Positions 55 to 17,835 of a stretch of DNA of 51,672 bases are shown piece after piece. Position 1 is the stretch's first letter, and each line of letters begins with the position of its first letter. The stretch lies in the NCBI GenBank assembly GCA_964448755.1, contig CAYUXF010000004.1, positions 1-51,672 of the forward strand. Reading direction: 5' to 3'. The notes below the pieces were generated by a model. That model saw only the letters and a list, made by a program, of their open reading frames with translations, did not search any database and was not told the DNA's origin. The position numbers and the translations under genes are program-made. Source of the DNA: an uncultured bacterium (GTDB lineage Bacteria > Margulisbacteria > Termititenacia > Termititenacales > CAYUXF01).

Positions 55-1428
55 TTAGGTGTTGATTTTGTTTATTTTTTTGGCTGTTATTAATCCGGAA
101 ATAAAAACACCCTGTATTGCTGACATGGGGTTTGTCCAGTGTCCGCAAAGATAAAGATTTTTTAGAGGTGTTTTATTGGCTAAGCTATTTTTTCCTGAGA
201 ACTTTGGATGAGACGCGGCGCCAAAAAAGGCGCCTGAAATATTATTGGTTAATTTTAGATAAGAATCTGGTCCAAGAAAAACCATTGTTTCTATTTTGTT
301 TTTGATTTCTGGAAATAATTCCAATATTATTTTTAAATAAATACTTTTTATTTTATTTTTTTCTTTGATAGAGAGTTTTGATCTATTGTTTGGTAAAAAC
401 CCGATTATTCTTATAATGCTTTTGCTTTTTGGTGCTATTTTTTTTGAATGAATTGTTGGTATATTTACAATATATTTATACTTATTTAAATATAGGCCGA
501 CTTTATTTTTTTCTTTACTGATATCTGTGTTTATCCCAAGATATAAGGCACAACCGGAGAGACTTGGCTTTAGTTTTTTTATTTTTTTTAAATAGTCGCT
601 GGGGATATTTTTTGGTGATAAAAGTTTTTCAAAAGTTAACTGTGGACTAATATTGGAGATAACAATATTGGCAGTTTTTTGATTTTTATTATTATGATAG
701 GTTATTTGGGCAAGATTATTATTAATTATATTTATTTTTGTGACATTGGCGTTGTATATTATTTTTCCACTATAGTGTTCGAGATTTTTTACAAGATTTT
801 GTGCAAAATCTGCCATCCCTTTTTGGGGATAGAAAGCCTGATAATAAAAAATGCTGCCAATCAAAGTGGCTATGTTCAAGGCAGATGCTTTATTAGCTTT
901 AAGTCCCAGATAATTGCTGAATGCGGACAGGTGTGTTTTTAGTTGTTTGTTTTTAAAGTAATTGTCGAGCATTTTTTTATAAGTTATTGTATTAATATCT
1001 GTGATTTTGCAGTTGTTATAATAAGACAATATATTTTTAATATCTTCAAAAAAATCAGAAATGGCTTTTTTTTCTTGAGGATATTTTTCTTGCAATGAGT
1101 AGATGAATTTATCTGCCGGTAAATTGTTTTTGATTTTTAGGCTTTCAATAAAGAAATTATCGAACTCGGTCAATTTACTGAATTTTGTTTTAAAAGGTAG
1201 CTGATCTAGATAATGACCAACGGGATTGTTTTTGTCGCCGACAGCGGTTAGAAAGTGTGGTCCTATATCAAAGGTGTATCTTTTTTTTTTTAAAGAAGAG
1301 CAGTAGCCGCCGGGAAAGCTATTTTTTTCAAGAATTGTTACATTGTAATTGTTTTTTGCCAATTCTATGCCGCAGATCAATCCTCCTATGCCGCTACCGA
1401 TAATTATAACTGTTGGTTTACTTTTCAT
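55..1428 (-). CDS. FAD-dependent oxidoreductase, phytoene-desaturase (CrtI/CrtD)-like family
   Basis: 457-aa ORF. N-terminal dinucleotide-binding motif VIIIGSGIGGL...ILEK. C-terminal NLYLCGHWTNP...ISG is typical of the CrtI/amine-oxidase fold. Its start overlaps the upstream KS-like gene by 11 nt, so it is the last visible gene of the minus-strand operon. Confidence 0.75.
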   Translation of the reverse strand: MKSKPTVIIIGSGIGGLICGIELAKNNYNVTILEKNSFPGGYCSSLKKKRYTFDIGPHFLTAVGDKNNPVGHYLDQLPFKTKFSKLTEFDNFFIESLKIKNNLPADKFIYSLQEKYPQEKKAISDFFEDIKNILSYYNNCKITDINTITYKKMLDNYFKNKQLKTHLSAFSNYLGLKANKASALNIATLIGSIFYYQAFYPQKGMADFAQNLVKNLEHYSGKIIYNANVTKINIINNNLAQITYHNNKNQKTANIVISNISPQLTFEKLLSPKNIPSDYLKKIKKLKPSLSGCALYLGINTDISKEKNKVGLYLNKYKYIVNIPTIHSKKIAPKSKSIIRIIGFLPNNRSKLSIKEKNKIKSIYLKIILELFPEIKNKIETMVFLGPDSYLKLTNNISGAFFGAASHPKFSGKNSLANKTPLKNLYLCGHWTNPMSAIQGVFISGLITAKKINKINT

Positions 1429-2461
1429 ATTTTTTTAATATTATAGTTGAGATCCTGCCGTCAGAATTAATATTATTAATTAGGATCGTTTTGTGTTTGT
1501 TTGTTGTTAGATTTAGATTGTTTAGTCGCTTGTTTTGAAATATTAGTAAAGCAACAATTATTTGTAAAGGCCCAGAGAGACCAAGCCCTTCTTTGGTATG
1601 TTTTTTTACTGCCAATGTCGGCTGTTCTTTGCCAAAGATTTTTTCAATGGAGTTTTGTTCAGCTGTATCTATTTCGGGATTTAAATTATTTTTATTTGTT
1701 AAAATCAGGTTTATGTCTGAGTAGGTTAGTTTGTTTTCATTCAAAATATCCTTGATGTTTTCTTCAACATTTTTATAGATATTATTGTTTTGATTTGTTC
1801 GATAGCCAATTATTTCTGCCATGATAGGTGTTTTTTCTTTTACAGCGGTTTTTGTCCTTTTTAATTGAAATAATGCGGCACCTTTTCCAAAACCGTAAAA
1901 TTTTTTACTGGGATTAAAAATATATTTAAGTTCTTTATTGTATTCATCTCCGCCGCCGCAGATGATTTCATGCAAAGATGAATTATTGTTTAAATAAAAA
2001 TAGCCCATTCCTATCGCATCAATACCTGAACAGAGACCGCTGCTGATAGTTTCGCACAATGTTAATTTTTTTTCTGTTAGAGCAATTCGGCAGGCAGGGA
2101 TATTTAGTACTGTGTCGGGAAATGCGCCGGGATTTATTCCATAATATCCCTTTTCTTGTGCCGATCTTTCAAACGTGTAAATACTGCTTAAACTGGATAG
2201 TGCAGAACCAATAACAATATTTTTTAATGGTTTTTCTAAATATTTTTTTAATAATACCGAAGCAAGTAATAAGTATTTGCTTAAATTGCTTTCTAAAGAA
2301 TTAAGCGGAATGCTTTTTTGTAATAGATTGGTTACTATATTTTCAAAATTTTCAGATTTTTGATTCTGTTGATTTACAGATGCAAGGTTTTTAATAAAGT
2401 TATCCAGACCGATTCCCAGAGGTGAAACTATTTCTGCTGCGGTTATAGCAATAGAGCTCAT
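1418..2461 (-). CDS. Ketosynthase-like partner subunit (chain-length-factor-type, probably non-condensing)
   Basis: 347-aa thiolase-fold ORF. It keeps a Cys in GLCSGIDAI, but the HGTGT catalytic-His block of the neighbouring KS aligns to LTNKNN (His replaced). An ATGA start/stop overlap with the upstream KS is typical of KS/CLF pairs. Confidence 0.65.
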   Translation of the reverse strand: MSSIAITAAEIVSPLGIGLDNFIKNLASVNQQNQKSENFENIVTNLLQKSIPLNSLESNLSKYLLLASVLLKKYLEKPLKNIVIGSALSSLSSIYTFERSAQEKGYYGINPGAFPDTVLNIPACRIALTEKKLTLCETISSGLCSGIDAIGMGYFYLNNNSSLHEIICGGGDEYNKELKYIFNPSKKFYGFGKGAALFQLKRTKTAVKEKTPIMAEIIGYRTNQNNNIYKNVEENIKDILNENKLTYSDINLILTNKNNLNPEIDTAEQNSIEKIFGKEQPTLAVKKHTKEGLGLSGPLQIIVALLIFQNKRLNNLNLTTNKHKTILINNINSDGRISTIILKKYEK

Positions 2462-3678
2462 TGTTTATTCTCTGAAAATTTTTTAATGATAATAGATGTA
2501 TTAATGCCGCCAAACGCCAGGGCGTTAGACATGACAATGTTTAGCTCTTTTTTTCTTGCTTTGTTTGGTATGTAGTCAAGATCACATAATGGGTCAGTTG
2601 TTTCATAATTAATTGTTGGTGGCATCAAGTTGTCTCGCAATGCCAGGCAACAGGCCACTGCTTCAATGGCGCTGGCTGCTCCCATGCAATGACCTAGCAT
2701 TGATTTGATAGAACTGATAGGCGTTTTGCAAGCAGTAGTTTTAAAAACGTTTTTTATGGCTTTTGTTTCAATCTGGTCATTAGTTAATGTTCCGGTGCCA
2801 TGGGCGCTAATATAATCAATATCTTTTGGTTGTATCTTGGCCATTTTCAAGGCATCTTTCATGGCCTGGCTGAGCCCTAGTCCTTCCGGGTGAGGGGCTG
2901 TAAGATGATAGCTGTCGCAATTTAGACCATACCCAATTATTTCACCGTAAATCTTAGCTTTTCTTTGAAGGGCAGTTTCTAAAGTTTCTAATAAAAGAAT
3001 GCCACTCCCTTCTCCAATTAAGATGCCAGATCTGTTCTTATCAAAAGGCTGAACTTTTTCTTTGGCCATAGAGCGTAATTTTATAAAGCCGGCATAGGCG
3101 GTATAAGAAAAAGAGTCACTTCCGCCAGCTAGTGCATATTGAACAATTCCATTTTTTATTAGTTCTGCAGCTCTGATTATTGCGTAGTTGCCAGCAGAAC
3201 AAGCCATAGGGAAGGTAAATGTTGGTCCGTTTAAATTTAATTCTTTGTTGATACCAGCGGCTATCTTCCAGGCTGGATATATTTGATATAAAAGTTTTTT
3301 TCGTTTAGGGGCAAGAGTTTTGTTGAATTTTTCATAAAGAACGTTACCTTCACCGCCGGTAACACCAATACATACTGCGGTTTGCTTGTTGTTAAGTGAA
3401 ATATTATTTTGGCAGGCCATTTTGGCGGCGACAATGGCAAATTGCGCGGCCGGTCCATAGTTTTTTAATGAACTTTTTTTAATAAAAAGCTCTGGCTGAA
3501 AAGAGTTTATTTCTCCACCGTGGGTAAAACTAAAATCTTTAGTATCATATTTTGTAATTGGTGAAATTCCACTTTTTCCGGTTACTATATTTTTCCAGAA
3601 GATATCCGGTTCGTTACCTAGTGCAGAGACTATACCCAGTCCGGTAATTACTATTCTGGTAGGTTTTTTGTTTTCCAA
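2458..3678 (-). CDS. Beta-ketoacyl-ACP synthase, KAS II (FabF)-like, intact catalytic triad
   Basis: 406-aa ORF with active-site Cys in MACSAGN, His in SAHGTGT and His in MLGHCMGAAS. It lies 3 nt downstream of an ACP gene. Confidence 0.9.
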   Translation of the reverse strand: MENKKPTRIVITGLGIVSALGNEPDIFWKNIVTGKSGISPITKYDTKDFSFTHGGEINSFQPELFIKKSSLKNYGPAAQFAIVAAKMACQNNISLNNKQTAVCIGVTGGEGNVLYEKFNKTLAPKRKKLLYQIYPAWKIAAGINKELNLNGPTFTFPMACSAGNYAIIRAAELIKNGIVQYALAGGSDSFSYTAYAGFIKLRSMAKEKVQPFDKNRSGILIGEGSGILLLETLETALQRKAKIYGEIIGYGLNCDSYHLTAPHPEGLGLSQAMKDALKMAKIQPKDIDYISAHGTGTLTNDQIETKAIKNVFKTTACKTPISSIKSMLGHCMGAASAIEAVACCLALRDNLMPPTINYETTDPLCDLDYIPNKARKKELNIVMSNALAFGGINTSIIIKKFSENKQ

Positions 3679-3681
3679 TTT

Positions 3682-3924
3682 TTATAGTTTTTTTGTTAAA
3701 TAGGCTTCAACTAAGGCAATGAATTGACCGACAGATTTTAGGTCATAGAGGTCGTTATTATCTATTTTAATGTTATATTTAGATTCTATATCAGAAACCA
3801 ATTCTAACATTTTTAAAGAATCAGCCTCAAGTTCTTTTAAAAAAAGAGTTTGAGGCGTTATTTTTTCAATAGGTTTTTTAAATGAAGTGGCAATAATTGA
3901 AAATATACCTTGTTGAATACTCAC
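3682..3924 (-). CDS. Acyl carrier protein
   Basis: 80-aa ORF with phosphopantetheine attachment motif LEADSLKMLELV (DSL). GTG start preceded by AGGAG about 8 nt upstream. Confidence 0.85.
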   Translation of the reverse strand: MSIQQGIFSIIATSFKKPIEKITPQTLFLKELEADSLKMLELVSDIESKYNIKIDNNDLYDLKSVGQFIALVEAYLTKKL

Positions 3925-3983
3925 GAATAACTCCTAAATTTTATACAAAAAAATATTCTATAGTATATAATATAATTTACAAC
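3925..3983. promoter_or_regulatory. 59-bp divergent intergenic region between the ACP operon (-) and the GNAT operon (+)
   Basis: This is the only non-coding gap between the two divergent operons. It contains TATAAT (3970-3975) only 8 nt upstream of the ATG at 3984, so that mRNA would have a very short leader or none. No clear -35 element was identified. Confidence 0.35.
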
Positions 3984-4562
3984 ATGTCATATTTACATAC
4001 TAATTTTGCAAAAATAGGCACAAAAAATTTATTTTTAATGGATTCTTTGCCTGCTGATCTGGAAAAAGTTAAGAATTTTTTTAAAAATAATAAAGATGTT
4101 CTTAATTACTCTAGTTGGCAGGATATTTACCAACAAGACGAAGGGCTCTCTTTTTTTGAAAAATCATTAAGGACACAGTTTGAATATCCGCGAAAAAGTT
4201 TTATTTTAGGCGTTGTTTCTAATAATAATCCTGCTGAAATGATAGGTGTTTGTAGTATATGTATTGATGAAGAAAAAAAAGAGGGTATTATTAGACTAGC
4301 TCTTGCCAGGAATATTCAGGGGCTCTTTTATTCTTTAGAAGTAATAGAGGCTCTTTTGGAATTTGGGTTTCAGGTTTTAAACTTTCATAAAATTATTTCC
4401 TTAGTAGATGTAGATAATGATATTTTAAAAAAAATATATTTGCGAGCAGGCCTTAAAGAAGATGGGAAATTACTGCAATATTTGTTTTATGGTAATTCTT
4501 GGCACGATCAATATTTGTTTTCTATTTTGCACAAAGATTGGCTGGAGCTGAAAAAAAGATGA
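3984..4562 (+). CDS. GNAT-family N-acyltransferase (RimJ/RimL-like)
   Basis: C-terminal GNAT core: ...FGFQVLNFHKIISLVDVDNDILKKIYLRAGLKEDGKLLQYLFYGNSWHDQYLFSIL. The ORF track starts at 3897 but that overlaps the ACP gene; the internal ATG at 3984 (MSYLHTNF) is preferred. The start is uncertain. Confidence 0.65.
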   Translation: MSYLHTNFAKIGTKNLFLMDSLPADLEKVKNFFKNNKDVLNYSSWQDIYQQDEGLSFFEKSLRTQFEYPRKSFILGVVSNNNPAEMIGVCSICIDEEKKEGIIRLALARNIQGLFYSLEVIEALLEFGFQVLNFHKIISLVDVDNDILKKIYLRAGLKEDGKLLQYLFYGNSWHDQYLFSILHKDWLELKKR

Positions 4563-5134
4563 ACAAAACAATAATGAAATTATCTGAATATTCTGTGAAA
4601 GAAATAGACTTTGATGATTTTGCTGCCTGCGCAATTTTTATAAGAAATAATCCTGATTTATTATCTTTTGATGGCTGGGGAAAGATAAAAAATATAGAAG
4701 AATTCAATTATTGTTTTCACAAATATCTGGTTGAAAAGCATGAAAACAAGAGTATTTATTCTATTTATCAAATAATTGATAATGATTCTGAAATAATAGG
4801 TTTTTGTGGATTTAAGTTAATTGATAAAACTTTCCTGATGACGGCAATTGGTCAAGGTGAGGCGGCTCTGTTATTTTGTTTTTCTGCAGAAATAGAAAAG
4901 ATCATTAAAAAAGAAATTCTATCTGAATTTATACGCTATGGGTTTAAAAAGTTAAATTTAAAACGTCAAAGATTTTTGGTTAGCGTTGATAGTGAAGAAG
5001 GGATCTCTTTTATTGCTGAATTGAATTTTATTAAAGAGGCGTTGCTTAGAGAACATTATTTTGCGGATAATGGTTGGCATGATTGTTTTTTGTATGCTGC
5101 GGTTAATTCTGTTTATCCAGGAGTAGCTAATTAA
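4559..5134 (+). CDS. GNAT-family N-acyltransferase (RimJ/RimL-like), tandem paralog
   Basis: ATGA overlap with the previous gene (ATG 4559, TGA 4560-4562). GNAT core: YGFKKLNLKRQRFLVSVDSEEGISFIAELNFIKEALLREHYFADNGWHDCFLY. Confidence 0.65.
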   Translation: MNKTIMKLSEYSVKEIDFDDFAACAIFIRNNPDLLSFDGWGKIKNIEEFNYCFHKYLVEKHENKSIYSIYQIIDNDSEIIGFCGFKLIDKTFLMTAIGQGEAALLFCFSAEIEKIIKKEILSEFIRYGFKKLNLKRQRFLVSVDSEEGISFIAELNFIKEALLREHYFADNGWHDCFLYAAVNSVYPGVAN

Positions 5135-5863
5135 ATGGTTTTTTTTGCCAGAGACAGGCTATTTAAAAACAATAAAAATTATCCCAAAGTTTTTAAGTTT
5201 AATGCGCTGGTTTCCCAAGTGTTTGATAACATGCTCAAGCGCAGTGTCCCTTTTTACTATAATATTCAAAAAGAGATCTGTTATTTTGCTAAAAAATTCA
5301 TCAAACCAAATACCAATGTTTATGATCTTGGCTGTTCAACCGGCTATACTGTCCGTAAAATTGCTAAAAACTTTAAAAAACAAAATATAACTTTATGGGC
5401 CGTTGATTATTCAAGCGAATTGCTCACTAGAGCGAAAGATCGTTTAAGAAAATACAAAAACATTAACTATATTAATTGTGATCTTAATAAAGATTTTAAA
5501 ATTTCTGGAGCCAGCTTTGTTGTTGCCAACTTAGTTTTACAGTTTTTAAAATATTCTTCCAGACAGAAACTTTTGAAAAATATTTATTCAGGTCTTCAGC
5601 CCGGCGGTTGTTTTATAATGGTTGAAAAATTGAGAAACGATAATTTTTTTCTGGAGAATATTTTTGTGGATCGTTACTATTTTTTTAAACAAAAAAACCG
5701 GTATTCAAGAGAGGAGATTGTTCGCAAAGAACGAGCGCTGAAAAGTATTTTATCTCCACTGACAATGCAAAAAAATATAGAGCTTTTGCAAAAAGCAGGC
5801 TTTTCTAATATAGAAGTATTTTTTAGGTGGTTTAATTTTTGTGGATTTATAGCGGTAAAATAA
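5135..5863 (+). CDS. cmoA: Carboxy-S-adenosyl-L-methionine (Cx-SAM) synthase, CmoA family
   Basis: 242 aa, collinear over its full length with E. coli CmoA as I recall it. Matching blocks: VFDNMLKRSVPFYYNIQ / VFPDMIQRSVPGYSNII; VYDLGCSTG / VYDLGCSLG; NLVLQFL..RQKLLKNIYSGLQPGG / NFTLQFL..RQALLDKIYQGLNPGG; YSREEIVRKERAL / YSELEISQKRSML; FFRWFNFCGFIAVK / WFQCFNFGSLVALK. Confidence 0.85.
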   Translation: MVFFARDRLFKNNKNYPKVFKFNALVSQVFDNMLKRSVPFYYNIQKEICYFAKKFIKPNTNVYDLGCSTGYTVRKIAKNFKKQNITLWAVDYSSELLTRAKDRLRKYKNINYINCDLNKDFKISGASFVVANLVLQFLKYSSRQKLLKNIYSGLQPGGCFIMVEKLRNDNFFLENIFVDRYYFFKQKNRYSREEIVRKERALKSILSPLTMQKNIELLQKAGFSNIEVFFRWFNFCGFIAVK

Positions 5864-5867
5864 AGAT

Positions 5868-6866
5868 ATGTATAGTGAAATATTTTCAAAAATAGCTACT
5901 CCGCAACTAAACGATAATGTTGTTGAGCGTCAAAAAAACAGATTATTTTCTTCAAATATACCTAAAATGATTGAACTCTTTAATCTTAGTGCAGCGCCTG
6001 TTATTTTAGATATTGGCGCAGGGACCGGTCAGTATAGCTATGCTTTTGCTGAGTATTTACAAGATAATGCCACTATTTATGCGGTGGAGGTTTTTAAGGA
6101 TAGGTATGATTACATAAAAGATCAAGTGGCTCTTAGAAATTATAAAAGTATTTTGCCAATGTTACTTTCTAGAAGTAATGATGATGAATTTTATTTTAAT
6201 AACAGTTATGACCTGATATTTTTGGGTAACAGTTTTGAATATATTAATAATAAGCAAAATTTTCTATCAAAATTAAGAGATAAGTTAAAAGAGCATGGTA
6301 AACTGGCAATAATTATGCATCGTGATATTAGCCCTTTTACAGAAGAGGATATTTTGGATAACGCTGGGTTGTTAAAGGCCTTATTAGATGAGAAACTGGA
6401 TAGTATATTTTATTTATCGGAAAAGAAAGAACCGCTGGCAAGCCTGAATTATTTCTTTAATGATTTAGACTGGACTGCCAAATATTTTCGCTATTGCCAG
6501 CAATTAAAATGGCTTCCTGTAAGCCAACTAGATGATCTGCAAAAAAGAACTTTAATGGGAATTATCAGTTTTTTAAAACGTGAAGAGAATATTTTTGATG
6601 ATAATTTTGAGATAAAAGACCCTGCCTTGATTACACCAAAAATAAATTTGATGTTTAAAATAGTTAATAAGTTAGTTTTTAGTGATCATTATAAACAATA
6701 TTTACGTGGAGATATTTTCAAGGAGAATTTTTTCTCTGATTTTAACAGAATGCAAAGCAGTGCTTTCTTGCAAGAGATAAAAGAAGTCATGGCTGCGGCC
6801 GGATATGGTTTTGCTGGTGTTTATGATTTTATTCCTTGGTATTATTTAGTAATTTTTAACAAGTAA
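5868..6866 (+). CDS. Class I SAM-dependent methyltransferase with a C-terminal extension of about 170 aa
   Basis: Motif I VILDIGAGTGQYS at residues about 45-57, plus LIFLGNSFEYI and GKLAIIM blocks. The domain layout differs from CmoB, whose GxGxG motif sits near residue 130, so it is not an obvious CmoB ortholog. Confidence 0.7.
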   Translation: MYSEIFSKIATPQLNDNVVERQKNRLFSSNIPKMIELFNLSAAPVILDIGAGTGQYSYAFAEYLQDNATIYAVEVFKDRYDYIKDQVALRNYKSILPMLLSRSNDDEFYFNNSYDLIFLGNSFEYINNKQNFLSKLRDKLKEHGKLAIIMHRDISPFTEEDILDNAGLLKALLDEKLDSIFYLSEKKEPLASLNYFFNDLDWTAKYFRYCQQLKWLPVSQLDDLQKRTLMGIISFLKREENIFDDNFEIKDPALITPKINLMFKIVNKLVFSDHYKQYLRGDIFKENFFSDFNRMQSSAFLQEIKEVMAAAGYGFAGVYDFIPWYYLVIFNK

Positions 6867-6888
6867 CATGTTAAGATAGTAGTTATAT

Positions 6889-7917
6889 ATGATTGAAACT
6901 GAAAATAATATCACTAATATATCTGATCCGGTAATCAAAAGTAATTGGTGCAATAAATTTGAAATTCCTTTAACAATGCTACAAACTGATTCTATTTTTG
7001 ATATTATTCAATCTGTAAAATACGGGGAATATATTCAAAGTGTTTATTTGCCTCTTTATGGGTTTGACGGTTTTTCTGGTAGACCTTTTTTTAAGAAAAC
7101 TAATGACAATCAAGTTGTAACTGTACCAGGCTATCAAAAGACAAAAGAAGAGTGGATCAGATTGATTAAAAACGTCGCTCAATACAAGCCTGTAACACTT
7201 ACAGTTCCTTTTTCAAAAAATATAAATTTAATTAAAGAATATATTGATTATGGCGTAAGTGAGATCATGATCAATCAATATTGGCCGGAACTTGATCAGG
7301 TTAAAGACAAGATCAAAATATCAAGATCTATTCTTGCTTATCATGATTCAGATGAGCCCATTGATGATCGTTTTGATGCAGTGATTATTCCCTATCGTAA
7401 AACTATGGACATAGAATGGTTAGAAAAGAATAGCAAGAAATTTGAGCTTATTGCGATCATAAATAATTATTGTGTAATAGAGTGCCCTTTGCAGAGTTAT
7501 AAAGAGAAGCTAATGCATAATTTTTATCGTGGTATTTTCCCTGTAAATAATGAGATCATGCCGTTTACTAAAAATTGTCTTAGATATGGCAAAACGACAT
7601 CTGCTATGTTGCCTAGAGATATTATTATCAAACTGAGTAAGTATATTTCTCGTTATAAATTAGTTGAAAGAGCATCTTCTCCCGCTGCTTATATTAGCTC
7701 TTTGAATTATTATATTTATAATGAACCTTTTTGTTTTGATTCTTTTAATTCTTCTGATTGGGTAAGAGAAGGTTTTAGTGCCGAGAAGATGGCTAGGATA
7801 ATGAAAGATAAAGAAGATCATTTTAGAGGATCAAACCTGGAAACACTTAATTGTAAATTTCAATGTTCTAGCTGTGATAGAAAGTGCTATAGTATTAATG
7901 ACTGGAATGATGAATAA
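6889..7917 (+). CDS. Cys-rich hypothetical protein, tentatively a U32-like barrel with a C-terminal Fe-S type Cys cluster
   Basis: 342-aa ORF. The pattern FEIPL...SVYLPLYGFDGFSGRP...KPVTLTV...GVSEIMI loosely follows the beta/alpha pattern of the U32 protein at 15809 and of the C-terminus of the 1556-aa protein. C-terminal NCKFQCSSCDRKC has spacing C-x3-C-x2-C-x3-C. There is also CVIEC. Confidence 0.35.
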   Translation: MIETENNITNISDPVIKSNWCNKFEIPLTMLQTDSIFDIIQSVKYGEYIQSVYLPLYGFDGFSGRPFFKKTNDNQVVTVPGYQKTKEEWIRLIKNVAQYKPVTLTVPFSKNINLIKEYIDYGVSEIMINQYWPELDQVKDKIKISRSILAYHDSDEPIDDRFDAVIIPYRKTMDIEWLEKNSKKFELIAIINNYCVIECPLQSYKEKLMHNFYRGIFPVNNEIMPFTKNCLRYGKTTSAMLPRDIIIKLSKYISRYKLVERASSPAAYISSLNYYIYNEPFCFDSFNSSDWVREGFSAEKMARIMKDKEDHFRGSNLETLNCKFQCSSCDRKCYSINDWNDE

Positions 7918-7966
7918 TAGATTTTTTAAAGACATTAATATATAATTCAAAACGAGAGGAATAATA

Positions 7967-8542
7967 ATGACTTACCAAAATTACATGGATTACACTAATA
8001 AATCACCTGATTATTCAGATCATACTAACTGGAATGGTTCTGCCTGGGTAGCTAATTATCGTGATCATCAGAATTATACTATAGATGATGGTGTTGCCCC
8101 TGTCACCAATGATCGTCAATATGTTTATAATATTAATACCCCAGCTAATGCTTTTACACAGGAATCTTATATTAAAGATCAGATTAATAATCTTAAAACC
8201 TTAAGGGACGATACAATAGAGTTAGCCACCCGCAAAGTTACATCTACTGGTGGAACAAATACTCCGGATTCGGTAAATAGTTATAATAAGGACACCGATT
8301 TTGAAGAGGCAGATTATGCTATCCAGCAGCAGGTAGAAGAGACCATTGCCAATGTCAAGGCTCTTTGGCAGTCTATGAAGGGAAACAACGATAATAACTG
8401 GTCTGGCTGGCCGGCAGATGAGCAAGACGGGCAAAGAAGAAAAGCCAGTGACTATAATATTTTGCGTGATAAGTTGCAAGATTTGGCACAGACAAATAAG
8501 CCGACAGGTTATGCTGACCATAAAAATATTGGTACGCCATAA
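7967..8542 (+). CDS. Hypothetical 191-aa protein with N-terminal aromatic-X-(Asn/Asp) tripeptide arrays; candidate rSAM substrate
   Basis: Strong SD (GAGAGGA) 6-7 nt before the ATG. No signal peptide or TM segment. Residues 3-39 read YQN YMD YTN kspd YSD HTN WNG sa WvaN YRD HQN YTI. Y-x-D-H-x-N occurs three times (residues 16-21, 31-36, 182-187). Confidence 0.6.
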   Translation: MTYQNYMDYTNKSPDYSDHTNWNGSAWVANYRDHQNYTIDDGVAPVTNDRQYVYNINTPANAFTQESYIKDQINNLKTLRDDTIELATRKVTSTGGTNTPDSVNSYNKDTDFEEADYAIQQQVEETIANVKALWQSMKGNNDNNWSGWPADEQDGQRRKASDYNILRDKLQDLAQTNKPTGYADHKNIGTP

Positions 8543-8550
8543 CTAATTAG

Positions 8551-8814
8551 ATGGCTATTATAAAAAAGTCTATCTCAAAAAAAAATTTACCAAAAAATGT
8601 TACATGCTCTTGCTGCGGTAAAACGCTTAACGAGATCGTTGTTTTAACTGAGGTTTTGTTGGATGTCTATAGCTGGTATGTTAATGATTCTAAAAAACAG
8701 TTGGAAAACATTAATGGCCTCTGGAAAAAGAATGGTGAGTATTTTTGTGAGCTCTGTTTTGCAAAATATGTAAAAACCATAGAAAAATTCTATAAAGATT
8801 GTCGCAAGGCTTAA
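8551..8814 (+). CDS. Small Cys4 zinc-ribbon protein (87 aa)
   Basis: CSCCG (residues 19-23) and CELC (residues 66-69) form a split zinc-ribbon pattern, and there are six Cys in total. It is tightly packed between the 191-aa ORF (8-nt gap) and the rSAM gene (6-nt gap). Confidence 0.55.
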   Translation: MAIIKKSISKKNLPKNVTCSCCGKTLNEIVVLTEVLLDVYSWYVNDSKKQLENINGLWKKNGEYFCELCFAKYVKTIEKFYKDCRKA

Positions 8815-8820
8815 TTTTTT

Positions 8821-10143
8821 ATGTTTGAAAATATTTATGAGGTTATTTTAAAAGTAACTCGCGATTGTAATTTAAATTGTCAGTATTGTTATTTAGGCGA
8901 CAAAAAACAGTATGCCGGCGAACGGATGAGTTTTACTGTTTTCAAAAAACTGATTGATCAAATTTATTTAGACAAACATATTCGTAATAAAAAAGAGAGA
9001 TTTAATGGTCAGCTACAGATAGTTTTTCACGGCGGCGAACCTACTTTGCTGGGGATATCTAGGCTGGAAAAATTTATTAAGTATGCCAAAGCCAAACTTC
9101 CCTATGTCCGGTTTGGTATGCAGACAAATATGTTAGTAATAGATCAGCAATGGGTAAACTTTTTTAAAAAATATAATATTTCACCGGGTATTAGTGTAGA
9201 TGGTAATTTAAAAAAGGAAAATGCTTTGCGTTTACCGGGATTTGATTTTACAGAAAAATTAAATTTGCTTAAAAAAAACAAGATCAGGTTCGGGACACTG
9301 ATGGTCTTAAGTAGTCAAAATATCAAAAATTTTTCTAAAAATTTAATGACATTTATTAAAAAATATAAGATCTCCTCAATTAAAGCCAATTTTGTCGAAA
9401 ATATGGCCAAACCAGAATTTTGTTATCCAGAAGTGACTGCCGACCAAATGTATCAACATGTTTTTTTGCCGACGATGGCCTTGTTTTTTGATCAAAATAA
9501 ATTATATGAATCAAATATTGAACATCTTATTGATAAATATATTAATAGTTTACTGTATAAAGAGTCTGCGGCTAAAACTTGTTCACATACTATTTGTCAT
9601 GCCAAATTTTGCGGCGGGGGTAATGCGATTGTTGAGGTTGAACCAACTGGTGAAATTCTTTTTTGTGGCCGCTGGAATAAAATTAATAAAGTTAATTTAA
9701 TGAATGATCTAACTTCTTTTTTTGATCCCTTTGGTATATCTTCTTATAAACGCGTTTTTGATCTGCAATTGCAAAAAGCGACAGCTGTAAGAGAATTAGG
9801 CTGTGATAGTTGTCCCGCTGCCGGTATTTGCAATTATGGCTGTTTGGCTTTTGCTTATGTTAAATATCAGGGGCAGATCAAAATTCGTTCAGAACTTATC
9901 TGTGATTACTATAAAAAAGTCATTAAATATTTTCAGGCACGTTATCATCAAATAATTTATATTTATAGCATGATCACTAAAAAAGAGATAATAGTGGCTA
10001 GAGGAAAAGTATTAATTGATTTCCCTATGGCTATGATTAATGGTGTTAGTAAGAAAAAGTTACCAGCCGGTTTGGCTTGGCAAAAAGTTAATAATAAAAA
10101 TTATTTAACAATTTCCAATAAATATTTAAAAGATTTTTTATAG
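8821..10143 (+). CDS. Radical SAM enzyme with canonical SPASM domain (peptide/protein maturase type)
   Basis: CNLNCQYC (CX3CX2C) at residues 16-23; GGEPTLLG. The C-terminal SPASM signature is visible directly: C-GGGNAIVEVEPT-G-EILF-C, then C-DS-C-PAAGI-C-NYG-C, then a downstream Cys (ELICDYY). Confidence 0.9.
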   Translation: MFENIYEVILKVTRDCNLNCQYCYLGDKKQYAGERMSFTVFKKLIDQIYLDKHIRNKKERFNGQLQIVFHGGEPTLLGISRLEKFIKYAKAKLPYVRFGMQTNMLVIDQQWVNFFKKYNISPGISVDGNLKKENALRLPGFDFTEKLNLLKKNKIRFGTLMVLSSQNIKNFSKNLMTFIKKYKISSIKANFVENMAKPEFCYPEVTADQMYQHVFLPTMALFFDQNKLYESNIEHLIDKYINSLLYKESAAKTCSHTICHAKFCGGGNAIVEVEPTGEILFCGRWNKINKVNLMNDLTSFFDPFGISSYKRVFDLQLQKATAVRELGCDSCPAAGICNYGCLAFAYVKYQGQIKIRSELICDYYKKVIKYFQARYHQIIYIYSMITKKEIIVARGKVLIDFPMAMINGVSKKKLPAGLAWQKVNNKNYLTISNKYLKDFL

Positions 10144-13100
10144 GGTTTTCTGTTGGCTGAATTTTGGCTGATAGACGATTCTCGATATTTTTAGTTTTTC
10201 CAAACAGGTACTATCTGGCAAACTGGTGTTTGTATAAAACTGGGTGTTGCCATTGATCAAGAGTGGCTCGTCATAGTTTCTTAAGTTGGCTGTAATATAT
10301 TTTTGCTGACAGTGTTGATAACAAAGATCTTTTTCTTTAAATAAACATTTTTTAGTTGTCGTTATATAGACATAAGGCAAGTAGAGACTATTACTTAAGT
10401 CTTCTGGCAATACAGCATCATATCCTTGCCAGACATTATCAAATTCTATGCCATTAATTTTATTGCTTAATAAATATTTCTGAAATATTTTTTCTGTTAA
10501 ATTAGCTGTGCGCAAATATTTTAATAATTCATTGTTATTTGTTTGGCGTGGTTCTCGTTTAACTTTTAATAAAAGGCGCCCCAGGCGCGGCGTTAACTGA
10601 TGCTTTTTTATTGAGGATAATAATCCCCAGTCATTAAAGACAATTTCACAATTTAAGGGCAGTAAAGGCAATAACTCAATTATTTTTTTTAATCCTTTTT
10701 CAGTTAGCGGCGGCGTTAATAAAATAAATCTTTTTTTATTTTTAAGACAATAATTTAAAAATGCTGCGGTTTTTTCTTTAGTGGGAATTAATTCTTCACA
10801 AAATTCTGAACCTAAGTAGATGTGAGTGTAGTTTAAGTGTTCCAGATCGGTTATTTTTTTTATGTTGTCAATGGCCAGCGCTAATTCTAACCGATGTTCT
10901 TTTAGATATTCTGGCAATTGGGCTAATAATTCTTTTTCTGTTTTTTCCCAGTTGTTAGATTTCTCTATTTGCTCAACAGCTGTTTTTATTGGTTCTTTAT
11001 TTTTTAGATAAGTGACCAGTTTTGGTATTTGTTGGTTGTAGTCATACTGTTTGGCTTTTTGCCTATTTATTTTTTGCATGGCCTGACGTGTTTTGTTATC
11101 AGATAATAAAATTAGTGCTGATAATAATTGTTGCGTGTCAGGAATATTGTTGTTGATATCTATTGTAAAGCCATTCTCGCCATCTATGACCAGTTCATTT
11201 ACTGCCTGCCAATTAGTGGTGATTATGGCGCAACCTGCGGCCATCCCCTCCACAATTGCCCGGCCAAAAGTTTCTCCTGTATCTGTGGAAAGAAAAACCA
11301 GCACATTAGATTCATTGAGGATTTGATTTCGCTTAATTTTTTCTTGTGTAAGATCTCCATGAAAAACAATATTTTCTTTCAGGTTAAATCGCTCAATAGT
11401 TTGGTGTAATAACGCTAAGTATTGTTTTTCTTCTTTATTTAAATTTTCCAGCGGACAGATAATATTCAATTTAAAAGATATTGCATTTTTACTGGCGCCT
11501 AGTAGACTGAGAAGAACGTGCAGATTTTTTACAGGGGTTAACCGTCCGCAATAAACCAGGCTCAGTTCATTGCTTTGGTCATAATTTTTCGGAAATTCTC
11601 TATAGTTTATTGGTCCGGCCATTTTTAGGAGATCAAAGTTTAGCGAAATTTGCTGAAAACTGCTGTGGAGATATTTGCTGAATGTCAAAAATGTATCAAT
11701 GTTTTTTGCTTCTCTGGCTAAGCGAAAATATCTTGCGCGCCACGGCTCAAAAATATAGGGCCAGACAATAAAGCCAATGGGCAATTTATTATCGTTGCGG
11801 TAAGTAAATAACGGATAAGCATCAATTGTAATATTGAGAAAGATAAAACTGATCTGGTTGGTTGTTAAAAAATTAAAAAAATCTATCAGTGATCTTTGTA
11901 AATGTTCTTCTTTGATCAAGATAACCTCAAAATAATTGCTAAGATATTTTAAGTTATCTTGATCGGTAACTTGATGACTAATATTGGCATATTGCTCTAT
12001 TTTTATTGCCGCTAGTTTGATCTTATTGTTGTTTTTTTCTTCAATTATTAGCTGTTCTTTAAGTTCAAAGTTAGCTACGGGTTTGTTTAAACATATTTCT
12101 GGCGGTAGCTCCAAAAAGAGCGGATGCTCTTGCCAGATAGTTTTTAAAACATAATAATTTTTTTCTAGATTTTTTATAGCAAGCGGTTTGTTTTTTTTGT
12201 AGAGCAGACAATCATTAGCTAGTAATATTTTATAGCCGTTATGCCGTGCTCTAAAACAGAAGTCAAAATAGGTATAAAGATCACTTTCTATAAAATTCTT
12301 GTTGAGCCCGCCAGCTTTTTGCAATAATGTCTTTTTTATTAGTAAACAGCTATCCCAAAGCCAATTTTTTTCTGTATAAGTTTCTGGTAGTTCTTCTGTC
12401 TGGCCTTTTTTCTTGTTTTTTATGTCAGTAAAATTATCGGTATAATTAGGCCCAACAATACCTATCTCTTTACAGAAAATAAACCCATTTTTTAATTTAT
12501 TTAACCAGTTATCGCTAATAATAATATTATCAGAAATTAAACAAACGTAGCGGCTTTGGCGATTATTTAACCCATCATTAATAAACGCTATTTCGCTGGT
12601 TGTTTGTGGGGCGATGATAATTTTTATATTTTTATATTTTTTTTGTAGTTGGTCATAATAGCTTTTTTTAGCTGAAGTAATGTTTTTATTTAAAATAATC
12701 AAATTAAAAGGGTGGCGCGTTCTTAAATAAAGAGCTGCCAGCGCTCGTTTAGTTAAAGAAAAATCATTGGATGTTAATAATATTATATCGATTGTTTCAC
12801 AGAAGATAGAATATTTTTCTAATAATTCACAGAACTGATATTTTTTTGTAAAACTAAGCTTGCTCTTGGCTACTCTTTCTTCAATATCAGGTGCGGTGAT
12901 CTGTTCTTCTAATGTAATATTGGCATAAAGAAAAAATTCTTGCCAGGAAAAGCTATTATTGCCAAATATTTCTGCTATTTCAGAGGTTTTAATTTTTTTT
13001 ACAGGTAGTAAGTTCAGATCGCTAATTGAAGGGACTGTGAAAGAGTGAATAGTGTAAATATTGTAATATTTTAGATGAAAATAAAAAGTTATCCCTTTAT

Positions 13101-14808
13101 CATCATGATTAATAGTGGAGAAGCTTAAGAATTGTAAGTTTTTTAATTTTCTGTTTTTTAGCATTAATTCAATCGAATAAAAAAGTGAATTTAAGCCGAG
13201 TTGTCCGGTCATTTTTTTTGTAAGCCCCTCATCATGTTGTCTTTTAAAATATAAAACCTTGGGGATAATATAAATTGGGGCCAGGGTTTCTAACCTAATA
13301 AATATATCGGCGTCTTCGCAGGCATTTAAAACTTCCGGGTTCCAGTGCCAACCGCCGATCTTTTTGAGATGTTTGGCATTGATCAAATAAGGTTGATAAA
13401 TATTGTAGATATCGATAGTAAATCCTTGATATTTTTGCCGTTGTTCAGGGATGATTTCCAGTGACATTATCTCTGATGTTATTCTGAGTCCGGCACGGAT
13501 GAGAGAAAAATCTTTATGTTTCGAAATTTCTTTTTTTAATTCTGCCAGTAGGGTAGGTGCTACATGGTCATCTGAATCAAGCGGAATTATATAGGGGCTG
13601 TTGGAGTTACTAAAGAGTATCTGTCGTGTAGGGCCTACACCTAAATTTCTGGTATTTTGAAAAAATTTTATTTTTTTATGTTTTTTATATTTTTCAACCA
13701 ATTCAGCTGCTTTTTTTTGGTCTGGTGGATTATCAAAACAAATGAGTAATTCCCAGTTTTTGTTAGTTTGCTGTATTACGGAAGTTACTGTTTCTTCAAT
13801 ATGTCGCAAGTCATAGGCCGGGCATTGAAAAGAGAAAAGAGGCCCTTTCTTCGCTCTATTGTTGATTGTTTTTTTTATGGGATTGATCTGAGTGTTTTTT
13901 AATATTTGAACACAAATTTCTGGCAGATCAAAGTCATAAAAATTATTATTATTAAAATTTATTAAATACTTTCCTGTTTTTAGATCTGAAGGTATTTTTG
14001 GATTTTTTATAGGGAGATCTTTATCTGTGATTGTTGTTTGATAATTATTCAAAATACTGATCTCTAATTTTTTGGAGTTATAAATTATTAAGTTAAAGTT
14101 TTTGTAGATTTGTTCATCAAGATAATTTTTAATTTTTAAAATATCTTTTTCCTGGGTTATTTTGAAAAAAAGAGATAGCAGTGGTTGCTCTAATTGCCAA
14201 AACTGCCCGGTAAAGGATTTTTTATTTATGGGGAATTTTAGATATTTTGGTAGGTAACTAAAGAGAGGTGTATTTTGCCAGCGGTAATAAAAAGCAGTGT
14301 AGTTTTCTTTAATCAATTTAGCAGCTTTTTCTGCGCCAAACGTGCCGCAATTGGCATGATGAATTTTACTATTGTGAGCGACTAATATTTTATAGCCGGC
14401 TTCAATTACTTTAAAACAGAGGTCAATATCCTCAAAATAACCTGGTCCAAAAATATTATCAAATAAGATATTTTCTTTGATCAATTGGCGATCGATCATA
14501 AAACAAGTGCCATAGACATAAGGGGCTTCAGTGTAAGTTGTTTTGCTGGAGATGGGGTTTTGGTAGGGATTATTGCAATTTATTAAAGGGGCTACAATGC
14601 CAACATTATTTGCCTTTTCAAACCCTTTAGCTAAGTTTTCCAGCCAGCCTTTATTAACTGTAGTATCATTGTTAAGTATTACCAGATATTTTGCTGTGCA
14701 ATGGGGAAGAGCCAGATTAATACTTTTTATAAACCCTAGGTTTTCATTGTTTTTAATTATTTTAATTTTCTTATGTTTTTTTAGTGAGTTATAATAATCT
14801 ATTGCCAA
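10138..14808 (-). CDS. Multidomain glycosyltransferase fusion: GT2 + GT2 + GT2 + GT4(GT-B) + C-terminal U32-like module
   Basis: 1556-aa ORF. GT2 no.1 is about 14340-14808 (ILNNDT, YFEDIDLCFKVIEAGYKI). GT2 no.2 is about 13230-13850 (PLDSDD). GT2 no.3 is about 12190-12800 (LISDNII, FDFCFRARHNGYKI). GT4 is about 11000-12000 (ETFGRAIVEGMAAGCAII, an EX7E motif). The U32-like tail is about 10138-10900 (HIYLGSEFCEE...ILLTPP...EIVFNDWGLL). The true start is probably upstream of 14808 (see findings). Confidence 0.8.
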   Translation of the reverse strand: MAIDYYNSLKKHKKIKIIKNNENLGFIKSINLALPHCTAKYLVILNNDTTVNKGWLENLAKGFEKANNVGIVAPLINCNNPYQNPISSKTTYTEAPYVYGTCFMIDRQLIKENILFDNIFGPGYFEDIDLCFKVIEAGYKILVAHNSKIHHANCGTFGAEKAAKLIKENYTAFYYRWQNTPLFSYLPKYLKFPINKKSFTGQFWQLEQPLLSLFFKITQEKDILKIKNYLDEQIYKNFNLIIYNSKKLEISILNNYQTTITDKDLPIKNPKIPSDLKTGKYLINFNNNNFYDFDLPEICVQILKNTQINPIKKTINNRAKKGPLFSFQCPAYDLRHIEETVTSVIQQTNKNWELLICFDNPPDQKKAAELVEKYKKHKKIKFFQNTRNLGVGPTRQILFSNSNSPYIIPLDSDDHVAPTLLAELKKEISKHKDFSLIRAGLRITSEIMSLEIIPEQRQKYQGFTIDIYNIYQPYLINAKHLKKIGGWHWNPEVLNACEDADIFIRLETLAPIYIIPKVLYFKRQHDEGLTKKMTGQLGLNSLFYSIELMLKNRKLKNLQFLSFSTINHDDKGITFYFHLKYYNIYTIHSFTVPSISDLNLLPVKKIKTSEIAEIFGNNSFSWQEFFLYANITLEEQITAPDIEERVAKSKLSFTKKYQFCELLEKYSIFCETIDIILLTSNDFSLTKRALAALYLRTRHPFNLIILNKNITSAKKSYYDQLQKKYKNIKIIIAPQTTSEIAFINDGLNNRQSRYVCLISDNIIISDNWLNKLKNGFIFCKEIGIVGPNYTDNFTDIKNKKKGQTEELPETYTEKNWLWDSCLLIKKTLLQKAGGLNKNFIESDLYTYFDFCFRARHNGYKILLANDCLLYKKNKPLAIKNLEKNYYVLKTIWQEHPLFLELPPEICLNKPVANFELKEQLIIEEKNNNKIKLAAIKIEQYANISHQVTDQDNLKYLSNYFEVILIKEEHLQRSLIDFFNFLTTNQISFIFLNITIDAYPLFTYRNDNKLPIGFIVWPYIFEPWRARYFRLAREAKNIDTFLTFSKYLHSSFQQISLNFDLLKMAGPINYREFPKNYDQSNELSLVYCGRLTPVKNLHVLLSLLGASKNAISFKLNIICPLENLNKEEKQYLALLHQTIERFNLKENIVFHGDLTQEKIKRNQILNESNVLVFLSTDTGETFGRAIVEGMAAGCAIITTNWQAVNELVIDGENGFTIDINNNIPDTQQLLSALILLSDNKTRQAMQKINRQKAKQYDYNQQIPKLVTYLKNKEPIKTAVEQIEKSNNWEKTEKELLAQLPEYLKEHRLELALAIDNIKKITDLEHLNYTHIYLGSEFCEELIPTKEKTAAFLNYCLKNKKRFILLTPPLTEKGLKKIIELLPLLPLNCEIVFNDWGLLSSIKKHQLTPRLGRLLLKVKREPRQTNNNELLKYLRTANLTEKIFQKYLLSNKINGIEFDNVWQGYDAVLPEDLSNSLYLPYVYITTTKKCLFKEKDLCYQHCQQKYITANLRNYDEPLLINGNTQFYTNTSLPDSTCLEKLKISRIVYQPKFSQQKTL

Positions 14809-15702: not shown

Positions 15703-15808
15703 AAATTTCCTTTTCTATAGTTTTATTCATAATATTATACTGTAAATAGTAGATCAATAAAACTTAATAAAATTGATTTTTTGCTATTCATTAAGTATGC
15801 TCTTGAGA

Positions 15809-16711
15809 ATGAAAATAGAGGTCCCAGTTAGAGGTTATAGAGAGGCTGTAGAGTTGCTGGCGGCTGGTGCCGATATTCTCTATGGTGCTCTGGCCCCACA
15901 ATTCTATAGCAATGCCGCTGGTGCTGTTAGCCGTAGAGCCTGGCAAGAGTGTAATATTTTTTCTTTACAAGATCTAAAGGCAATTTGTCAGTTAGTTAAA
16001 GAAAAAAATAAAAAGTTTTATTTGGCCTTAAATGAACATTTTTATAATGAAGAACAATTGCAGGGGATTAGCGCGTTTTTAAAAATTAATAAATTTATTA
16101 AAAATATTATTATTGCAGATCTAGGCTTGGTCCTTTTTTTAAGAAAAAACTTTCCTAAACTAAATATTATTGCCAGTGTTGGGACACATGTGTTTAATTC
16201 TGCGGCGGTTAGTTTTTATGAAAATTTAGGAGTTAAAGAAATAGTTTTGCCAAGAGAGATAACGGCTGAAGAGGTAGTTTTATTAAAAAACAGTGCAGCG
16301 CAAATTAGTTTTTCGTATATTATAAAAAACGATGATTGTCCTAATATTGATGGTCTTTGTGCGTATTCTCATGGCATTTATGATGGTAGTGGTCCATGTA
16401 CAGATCTTTATAATATTGTTTGTAAAGATAGAATTTCCGAAGACGTCGTTGAAATAAATGATTATAATTTTAGATCACGTCAAAATTGCAAGGTTTGTCA
16501 ATTAAAGAGTTTTGCGCAAGCGGGGTTGGATATTGTTAAAATTGCTGGCAGAGGTAGTTCTTTAAAGAAGCTAGTTCAAGATATTGATTTTTTGAAACAG
16601 GCGATTGGTTTTTTGAAATATCCAGAGCAGCAATTTTTGTTTAGTCTAAAAAATGCATATAGAAAAAGTTATAATTGTGAATGTTTGGTGAATTGTCAGG
16701 ATGGTTCTTAA
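15809..16711 (+). CDS. Peptidase-U32-family protein (family of the O2-independent hydroxylases UbiU/UbiV, TrhP, RlhA)
   Basis: MKIEVPVRGYREAVELLAAGADILYG..., KKFYLALN, IIIADLGL, IVLPREIT. The U32 Cys signature C-x4-G-x-C-x-x-S is present as CPNIDGLCAYS, with further Cys in CTDLYNIVC. The ORF track begins at TTG 15773; ATG 15809 matches the usual family N-terminus. The start is uncertain. Confidence 0.8.
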   Translation: MKIEVPVRGYREAVELLAAGADILYGALAPQFYSNAAGAVSRRAWQECNIFSLQDLKAICQLVKEKNKKFYLALNEHFYNEEQLQGISAFLKINKFIKNIIIADLGLVLFLRKNFPKLNIIASVGTHVFNSAAVSFYENLGVKEIVLPREITAEEVVLLKNSAAQISFSYIIKNDDCPNIDGLCAYSHGIYDGSGPCTDLYNIVCKDRISEDVVEINDYNFRSRQNCKVCQLKSFAQAGLDIVKIAGRGSSLKKLVQDIDFLKQAIGFLKYPEQQFLFSLKNAYRKSYNCECLVNCQDGS

Positions 16712-16737
16712 TAAAAATAAACTAGAAAAGAGGATCA

Positions 16738-17760: not shown

Positions 17761-17835
17761 TTTTTTTAGGCTTTGGTTGTTAGAAAACTTATTTAATAAA
17801 ATTAAGATTTTCTTTTTGTTAAGTTAAATATCTGT

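Follow-up and report, generated by a model that had tools for sequence, protein, structure and literature searches.

In the window, i.e., the whole 51,672-nucleotide stretch analysed here (contig CAYUXF010000004.1 of assembly GCA_964448755.1, from an uncultured bacterium), three consecutive genes encode a CmoA-family protein (5135–5863), a class I methyltransferase-fold protein of 332 amino acids (aa) (5868–6866) and a cysteine-rich protein remotely related to the U32 family (6889–7917). These genes may form a tailoring module in a larger biosynthetic island, one that probably depends on prephenate. The account that we favour, tentatively and at a little under an even chance, is that the CmoA-type enzyme makes carboxy-S-adenosylmethionine (Cx-SAM), that the coupled transferase uses it to carboxymethylate a nucleophile of the island other than tRNA and that the U32 relative either creates this nucleophile by hydroxylation or serves the radical S-adenosylmethionine (SAM)/SPASM enzymes. 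What is observed directly is the family membership, a charge swap in the CmoA-type protein, how the operon is built and that the gene pair recurs; the remainder of the model we infer.

The operon consists of eight open reading frames (ORFs) on the + strand, from about 3897 to 10143, within the 30% GC left part of the window. They follow in the order GNAT1, GNAT2, CmoA-like, 332-aa methyltransferase, 342-aa Cys-rich, 191-aa, 87-aa CxxC and radical SAM/SPASM, with successive intergenic gaps of −4, 0, 4, 22, 49, 8 and 6 nucleotides (nt). A first-pass annotation of this DNA had already proposed that Cx-SAM and U32 chemistry were recruited to the island's product; judged by context, this fits better than a tRNA-modification operon, but its arguments from novelty and from a conserved arginine fail, for the reasons given below.

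The CmoA-family protein and its charge swap

The assignment of the 242-aa product of 5135–5863 (+ strand), a predicted carboxy-SAM synthase, to the CmoA family was confirmed by the equivalog model TIGR00740, matched end to end (model positions 1–239 of 239) at 197.3 bits against a cut-off of 193.3, and by the match to E. coli CmoA (Protein Data Bank (PDB) code 4GEK, E=9e-41), with H. influenzae YecO (1IM8) also at about 1e-40. The protein stays under the threshold of the enterobacterial model PRK15451 (155 bits vs 285). Its nearest relatives are four metagenomic proteins with 57–86% identity, followed by ordinary CmoAs at about 40–46%, and a scan of GTDB representative genomes with this CmoA returned no island-type relative. 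All the residues described as contacting SAM in 4GEK (Y39, D62, G64, S66, D89, D117, N132 and F137; PMC3663124) are kept, while position N90, which varies among canonical CmoAs too, is occupied by Tyr. In addition, the family-invariant residues E164, K165, K185, Y190 and K198 are retained.

As described in the CmoB structural paper, Arg199 of E. coli CmoA is the sole side chain that touches the carboxylate of Cx-SAM. The first-pass annotation had placed this ligand in the RKERAL block of the window protein, but in the wrong register: within a gap-free stretch anchored by Y190, E194, I195, K198 and L202, E. coli Arg199 stands opposite Glu199, and the Arg of RKERAL is position 200, which is Q, H, N and N in the orthologues. 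Across the island clade, position 199 is E (window), K, S, D and D, and position 203 is an invariant Lys, compared to the canonical Glu. Arg199 is found in 111 of the 121 nearest homologues, the exceptions clustering nearest to the query and mostly bearing Lys203. As residues 199 and 203 are four positions apart, a helical conformation of this stretch would put both on one face, and the invariance of Lys203 in the clade suggests that a basic residue has been selected for on this side of the helix. Lys203, one helical turn past the Arg199 position, would then be the positive partner for the new carboxylate, comparable to Arg203 in SpCmoA, the enzyme of Synechococcus phage S-B43.

The swap is also seen in CmoAs of phages whose partner is a C5 DNA methyltransferase homologue, being Ser199/Arg203 in a Staphylococcus phage SPbeta-like protein and Glu199/Arg203 in the Synechococcus phages S-CRM01 and S-B05. 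The S-B05 cmoA gene is 100% identical in DNA to that of S-B43, and SpCmoA makes Cx-SAM with a kcat of 2.33 per second, which is ten times the rate of its E. coli counterpart. Consequently, full activity is possible in a CmoA that lacks Arg199 and carries a basic residue at position 203, and the Cx-SAM synthase activity of the window protein is plausible, since SpCmoA is active with the same combination of Glu199 and a basic residue at 203. Considering its family, the 5135–5863 product would convert SAM and prephenate into Cx-SAM and phenylpyruvate.

The swap is present in CmoAs outside such islands as well (L024, 10001–10708; L016, 8001–8747), with Ala199/Arg203 in a Pelagibacteraceae genome and Lys199/Lys203 in a stand-alone CmoA beside ATP synthase genes; Arg199 is therefore not a universal CmoA hallmark. 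A phylogeny, as proposed by the first-pass annotation, was built by neighbour joining from 128 CmoA homologues; the swapped forms stand at several places in it, and the tree speaks neither for nor against a single origin.

The replacement of the sole carboxylate-contacting residue by Glu is also what recommends a different explanation, in which the CmoA-like protein lost its Cx-SAM synthase activity and both it and the 332-aa enzyme are ordinary SAM methyltransferases acting on the island's product. The marginal TIGR00740 scores, with one orthologue below the cut-off, and the good match of both proteins to generic methyltransferase models agree with it. However, SpCmoA is highly active with the same Glu199, Lys203 is invariant in the clade and the other family-invariant residues, from E164 to K198, are retained; moreover, the CmoA active site is buried and covered by a lid, being unsuited to methyl transfer onto a substrate. 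Taken together, a loss of activity seems unlikely.

The transferase partner and the recurrence of the gene pair

The gene at 5868–6866 (+ strand) starts 4 nt after the CmoA gene, and its product is a predicted carboxymethyltransferase. Its Pfam and NCBIfam matches at E≤0.01 are limited to generic models of class I methyltransferases, none being to CmoB, in agreement with the earlier description of a class I methyltransferase unlike CmoB. The AlphaFold2 (AF2) model (pLDDT 83, pTM 0.81) predicts a Rossmann core with motif I at residues 45–54 and a helical insert of about 150 residues (about 165–310) between strands 5 and 6. The top structural neighbours in Foldseek are plant alkaloid N-methyltransferases, Rickettsia protein lysine methyltransferases, RoqN and TleD, and no CmoB chain is found among the top 50 matches; neither the CmoB-specific N-terminal domain of about 100 aa nor the Lys91/Tyr200/Arg315 site was found in the protein, which is acidic (pI 5.3). 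Given its pairing with CmoA, the enzyme would transfer the carboxymethyl group from Cx-SAM to a non-tRNA nucleophile, and the RQxxR motif conserved in the family could, as a guess, be the carboxylate clamp.

This transferase family is very small, with three close relatives and a few distant ones. A metagenome scan with the transferase alignment (SAM-binding motif only) returned mostly generic 230-aa methyltransferases, the only full-length relatives being those of L026 and L027, and plasmid searches found transferase relatives only over the Rossmann core and none of the Cys-rich protein. In the syntenic contig L011 (10520–10650), and at the same coordinates in L012, the transferase orthologue is split by a T-rich insert of about 110 nt; a pseudogene, a small insertion element and an assembly artefact are all possible explanations.

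The arrangement of a CmoA gene followed closely by a transferase gene is repeated outside the related islands. In L010, a CmoA of the Lys203 type (P0010, 44% identical) is followed after about 4 nt by a 392-aa homologue that aligns end to end with the window transferase (25% identity, E=2e-29), and this locus encodes two paralogous transferases. L106 has the order EamA, CmoA and, after about 4 nt, an ORF with the N-terminal RRQxER motif of the transferase family, and on the P0012 contig a gene starts about 4 nt past its CmoA, probably repeating the same arrangement. Therefore, the pair is conserved across two clades that are only 40–45% identical in CmoA. In the distant pair loci, EamA exporters and a HemN-like radical SAM enzyme adjoin, and the transferases begin with hydrophobic segments. 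As for the related islands, which come from only about three closely related lineages, the CmoA, transferase and Cys-rich genes stay together in all of them.

The cysteine-rich protein, the candidate acceptors and the island

The 342-aa Cys-rich protein (6889–7917, + strand) had been called U32-like in the first-pass annotation. It has no Pfam match even at E≤10, no NCBIfam match and no PDB match by phmmer; a PDB search with the profile of its family gave no match either, and none of 20 family members matches PF01136 or any relevant Pfam family. The family is also rare, as an exhaustive profile search of 1.84 billion representative proteins returned only 16 clusters. Nevertheless, the label holds as remote homology, owing to a profile–profile signal and to collinear landmark motifs. 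When the Cys-rich family was compared in hhalign with a U32 profile of five members (E. coli UbiU, UbiV, RlhA and TrhP, plus the window's own U32), a probability of 84.4% was obtained (E=7e-6, score 47.6), compared to scores ≤20 and probabilities below 1% in the controls (unrelated alignments, 30 column shuffles and the reversed profile); with the window's U32 as a single sequence, the comparison with the Cys-rich protein was not significant. Under relaxed thresholds, the alignment is collinear end to end, with the landmark pairs ELLxPAG/FEIPLT, AVYxG..R.F/VYLP..SGRxF, KIEGRxxSPxY/KLVERxxSPAAY and, between the U32 and Cys-rich families, KIEGRQRSPAYV with KLVERASSPAAY.

Seven cysteines are invariant in the family (C195-x3-C199, C230 and C322-x3-C326-x2-C329-x3-C333), and the product is a probable Fe-S protein. 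In UbiU, the ligands of the 4Fe-4S cluster are, as we take them to be numbered, C169, C193 and C232; the first two align with C195 and C230 of the Cys-rich protein, respectively, and C232 has no evident equivalent. A further ligand of UbiU is C176 (PMC10990095), so that the second cysteine stands at +4 in the Cys-rich protein instead of +7, and a CX3CX2CX3C motif is additional at its C-terminus. By family model, then, the 6889–7917 product is not a U32 member, and its Cys pattern differs. Its AF2 model (pLDDT 55) retrieved generic TIM barrels in Foldseek, with a TM of about 0.35, and was not used as support.

Characterised U32 proteins are linked to prephenate-dependent, O2-independent hydroxylation. 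The Cys-rich protein may create the hydroxyl group that is later carboxymethylated; alternatively, the radical SAM/SPASM enzymes nearby may be what it serves. A role in hydroxylation would be pure analogy with the U32 family. Elsewhere, the Cys-rich family occurs without CmoA or the transferase, with a radical SAM/SPASM gene nearby in each sufficiently long locus (L002, L006 and the second copy of L011), and also near ketosynthase (KS) genes. That second copy (L011 1308–2336, − strand) is a paralogue 49% identical to the window protein and adjoins a radical SAM/SPASM gene; neither paralogue is appreciably closer than the other to the members P0003, P0004 and P0005. In more distant relatives, genes for ankyrin-repeat proteins adjoin the Cys-rich gene (L002 4578–5441; L006 390–1256), which may point to a host-associated lifestyle. 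BLASTP found no similarity of the Cys-rich protein to the 340-aa ORF at 16738–17760 or to the 1556-aa glycosyltransferase of the window.

Regarding the acceptor, the candidates are the aromatic-rich 191-aa protein or a compound made by the KS, KS-like, acyl carrier protein (ACP) and GNAT genes. The first-pass annotation had noted the 191-aa ORF and a radical SAM/SPASM enzyme downstream, and both are indeed in the same operon, together with the 87-aa CxxC ORF. The 191-aa protein (7967–8542, + strand) is acidic, rich in Tyr, Trp, His, Asn and Asp and lacks Cys, being a candidate substrate or structural partner. It has no match to a Pfam or NCBIfam family, but it is about 80% identical between islands, compared to 60–75% for the neighbouring enzymes; the three islands do not differ over its residues 1–28, a stretch with abundant Tyr, Asn, Asp, His and Trp, and they agree at 36 of the first 38. 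Compared to the short precursor with leader and core regions expected beside the maturase of a RiPP (a peptide made by the ribosome and modified after translation), the neighbour of the maturase here is this protein of no known family, strongly conserved over its full length. Among the loci examined, its gene was seen only in islands with CmoA and the transferase. Between the Cys-rich and 191-aa genes, L005 carries a sulfotransferase gene (4119–4883, − strand), whereas L011 (12172–12357) and L012 have nothing but short ORFs there and the window only 49 nt.

The three activities suggested by the trio are exactly those of the pathway to 5-carboxymethoxyuridine (cmo5U), and the genes could be a divergent set for the modification of xo5U34 in tRNA (or of rRNA), with the 332-aa enzyme as a non-orthologous replacement of CmoB and an incidental position in the island. 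The 332-aa gene stands in the place of cmoB next to cmoA, as in E. coli, its product has sub-threshold similarity to Taw2 (36 bits) and TRM5/TYW2 (24 bits), and neither cmoB nor trhO was found among the ORFs scanned, which extend over the left half of the window, to about 28.8 kb. However, these tRNA-methyltransferase similarities are far under the cut-offs, and the surroundings speak rather for an acceptor other than tRNA. The genes stand midway in a tight eight-gene operon, between the GNAT genes and the 191-aa and radical SAM genes, in a block that recurs in related islands; the transferase is acidic, lacks an RNA-binding domain and in structure lies near methyltransferases of small molecules and proteins; its distant homologues have hydrophobic N-termini and EamA exporters as neighbours; and the U32-like family accompanies radical SAM/SPASM and KS genes without CmoA. 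A tRNA or rRNA target thus appears quite improbable.

Around the module, the operon begins with two paralogous GNAT acyltransferase genes, in accordance with the earlier description. GNAT1 (3897–4562, + strand) matches the Pfam family Acetyltransf_3 at 40.3 bits and has orthologues in L005, L008 and L011; its true start is probably an internal ATG near 3984, judging by the shorter L011 orthologue. GNAT2 (4559–5134, + strand), whose ATG overlaps the stop codon of GNAT1 by 4 nt, reaches 24.5 bits with the same family, slightly below the cut-off, and its orthologues are recovered by phmmer with GNAT1 as query at E=2e-11. At the other end, the 87-aa basic protein (8551–8814, + strand) bears CxCC and CxxC motifs in a zinc-ribbon-like pattern and has a 77% identical orthologue in L011. 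The operon's last gene (8821–10143, + strand) encodes the radical SAM/SPASM enzyme, with matches to Pfam Radical_SAM (49 bits) and Fer4_12 and to many radical SAM/SPASM maturase models of NCBIfam, all below the cut-offs, the best being anaerobic sulfatase maturase, PapB, DynA and cyclophane-forming maturases. Its sequence includes CNLNCQYC and CDSCPAAGICNYGC, and the CX3CX2C radical SAM and CX2CX5CX3C SPASM patterns are present.

A second block of the same island (55–3924, − strand) diverges from the operon. It encodes an ACP (3682–3924), a KS with an intact Cys/His/His triad (2458–3678), a 347-aa KS-like partner resembling a chain-length factor (1418–2461) and an FAD amine-oxidase-family enzyme (55–1428), as assigned by Pfam and NCBIfam. 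The KS-like protein is without the catalytic Cys and His, as its alignment with the KS sets ISS opposite ACS and NKNN opposite HGTGT. The KS, KS-like and ACP genes (1418–3924) are a minimal type II polyketide synthase-like or aryl-polyene-like set, and the whole block, including the amine oxidase, is also found in L011/L012 and L002. The left edge of the window cuts into the island, and the syntenic 26-kb contig L011 (with L012, GCA_030153525.1) extends further, with three additional radical SAM/SPASM genes, a 287-aa ORF and the second Cys-rich paralogue; a counterpart of this paralogue in the present genome, if there is one, would lie past the left edge of the window. The scan for promoters and terminators gave counts not above those of shuffled sequence, and the sole match of the Rfam scan was a tRNA-Trp.

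Further into the window, a genuine but generic Peptidase_U32 gene is located at 15773–16711 (Pfam 92 bits; 59.8 with the TrhP model, whose cut-off is 534), followed by a WbuX-like PP-loop amidotransferase (16738–17760) and a radical SAM/SPASM gene (17836–18747), making 15773–18747 the second pairing of U32 and radical SAM in the window. The 1556-aa protein at 10138–14808 (− strand) has several GT2 domains, one GT1 domain and, C-terminally, about 250 aa without a family match; its stretch HIYLGSEFCEE... looked U32-like by eye, and the domain, as a single sequence, gave a probability below 1% against the U32 profile in hhalign. A secretin is also encoded. The RNA polymerase genes at 30969–38444 include a short RpoB (1083 aa), nearest to the beta subunits of cyanobacteria (8SYI, 8H3V and 8GZG, at about 1357 bits), and an RpoC that is a single 1392-aa ORF, not split as in cyanobacteria; judged by these two sequences, the pattern hints at a non-photosynthetic cyanobacterial relative or another deep lineage.

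Weighing the proposal and its relation to known Cx-SAM systems

That Cx-SAM is made but used by some other enzyme, with the 332-aa protein acting, for instance, like CmoM in methylating the carboxylate once it is installed, or at some unrelated position, is the least probable of the alternatives: it draws on a faint resemblance to CmoM (the window protein scores 17.5 bits and the L010 homologue 26.2), on family members without a nearby CmoA and on the two paralogous transferases of L010, but the CmoM cut-off is 366 bits, the 4-nt coupling and the order of CmoA and then transferase are kept in two deeply separated clades and, by Pfam and NCBIfam, the operon has no further methyltransferase-fold gene.

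Several observations weigh against the proposal that a Cx-SAM made by the CmoA-type enzyme is transferred by its partner to a product of the island. The canonical carboxylate ligand Arg199 is absent from the synthase, the precedent for activity carries Arg203 (SpCmoA) whereas the window protein carries Lys203, and the TIGR00740 scores of the clade straddle the cut-off, the orthologues reaching 190.5, 202.5 and 198 bits. In the transferase, no feature was found that selects Cx-SAM over SAM, and in L011/L012 its gene is interrupted by two in-frame stops (TGATAG), with an insert that translates as poly-Phe, while cmoA is intact. The pairing is not strict, as some full-length members of the transferase family are without a nearby CmoA (P0130 type, L013–L015), and the Lys203-type CmoA P0027 is alone, beside ATP synthase genes. 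The U32-like family is likewise separable from the CmoA–transferase pair, and its AF2 model is the poor one already mentioned. In addition, the related islands belong to close relatives, so that the conserved gene order among them says little about a functional linkage.

A more far-reaching form of the favoured proposal is that the cmo5U chemistry as a whole, U32-type O2-independent hydroxylation plus O-carboxymethylation, has moved from tRNA to a protein or a polyketide-type product, which we consider doubtful. With the same reserve, an aromatic position on the 191-aa protein or on the KS/ACP compound would be hydroxylated by the U32-like protein and then carboxymethylated by the previously unrecognised family sharing the RQxxR motif (the 332-aa protein and those of L010 and L106), the carboxymethyl group being provided by a CmoA of the Lys203 type.

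The first-pass annotation had assumed that Cx-SAM has a single known use, in tRNA, and that this island would bring the first use outside it; both statements are contradicted by published systems. TglE and TglF carboxymethylate a peptide thiol in 3-thiaglutamate biosynthesis, MccS together with MccB's C-terminal domain modifies a peptidyl-cytidylate in a microcin C-like antibiotic and phage CmoA and CmoX make 5-carboxymethylcytosine in DNA.

Compared to these systems, the module has both likenesses and differences. With TrhP/CmoA/CmoB of the E. coli cmo5U34 pathway, it shares a CmoA-family gene, a methyltransferase-fold partner directly downstream and a U32-related protein; however, the partner here matches neither the CmoB model nor its N-terminal domain, Arg199 is missing from the CmoA, the U32 relative is beyond the reach of Pfam with another Cys pattern and the surroundings are an island with GNAT, radical SAM and KS genes. 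TglE/TglF (PmaE/PmaF) of Pseudomonas syringae illustrate a similar recruitment of a CmoA homologue, together with a transferase, to a biosynthetic cluster based on a peptide and with a non-tRNA acceptor, but TglF is CmoB-like and keeps Lys91, whereas the window transferase is of an unrelated family, and the other partners are TglHI and TglB there, compared to radical SAM/SPASM, GNAT and KS here. MccS/MccB of Bacillus amyloliquefaciens, compared by description only, also combine a CmoA homologue with a methyltransferase fold other than CmoB, Cx-SAM-specific in that case, in an antibiotic cluster; nevertheless, the MccB transferase is a domain fused to a ThiF-like adenylyltransferase, and no ThiF-like gene is present here. 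The CmoA/CmoX/CmoY system of phage S-B43 shares the 199/203 charge swap (Glu199/Arg203, compared to Glu199/Lys203) and a non-CmoB transferase partner, but that partner is a C5 cytosine DNA methyltransferase homologue with DNA as acceptor, whereas the present genes are chromosomal and without a DNA methyltransferase or amide ligase. Finally, TrmR (YrrM) with TrhP1/TrhP2 (YrrN/YrrO), which form 5-methoxyuridine (mo5U) in Bacillus, resemble the module in having a methyltransferase gene beside U32-family genes, yet they use plain SAM, true U32 members and a tRNA target, with no CmoA.

A literature search found no paper on a module of CmoA, the 332-aa transferase and the U32-like protein. Three features appear to be new, namely the family to which the partner transferase belongs, a CmoA with Lys203 and the link to a U32-related protein within a radical SAM-rich island. 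Cx-SAM is a rare cofactor, with proven uses in tRNA cmo5U, 3-thiaglutamate, a microcin C analogue and phage DNA. A new recurrent partner of CmoA, if correct, would widen the set of natural carboxymethyltransferases, enzymes of a kind that engineers now have to obtain through mutagenesis, and should the complete cmo5U chemistry have moved to the island's product, this would be the fourth independent type of Cx-SAM-using transferase and the first U32-type hydroxylation outside RNA and quinones. The change from Arg199/Glu203 to Glu199 with Lys or Arg at position 203 would revise the functional signature of CmoA, and annotation is affected, since the residue proposed as a hallmark is missing from a proven Cx-SAM synthase too. 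Likewise, the Cys-rich protein would be a small unannotated U32-related branch accompanying radical SAM/SPASM enzymes, hinting at U32-type chemistry beyond RNA and quinones.

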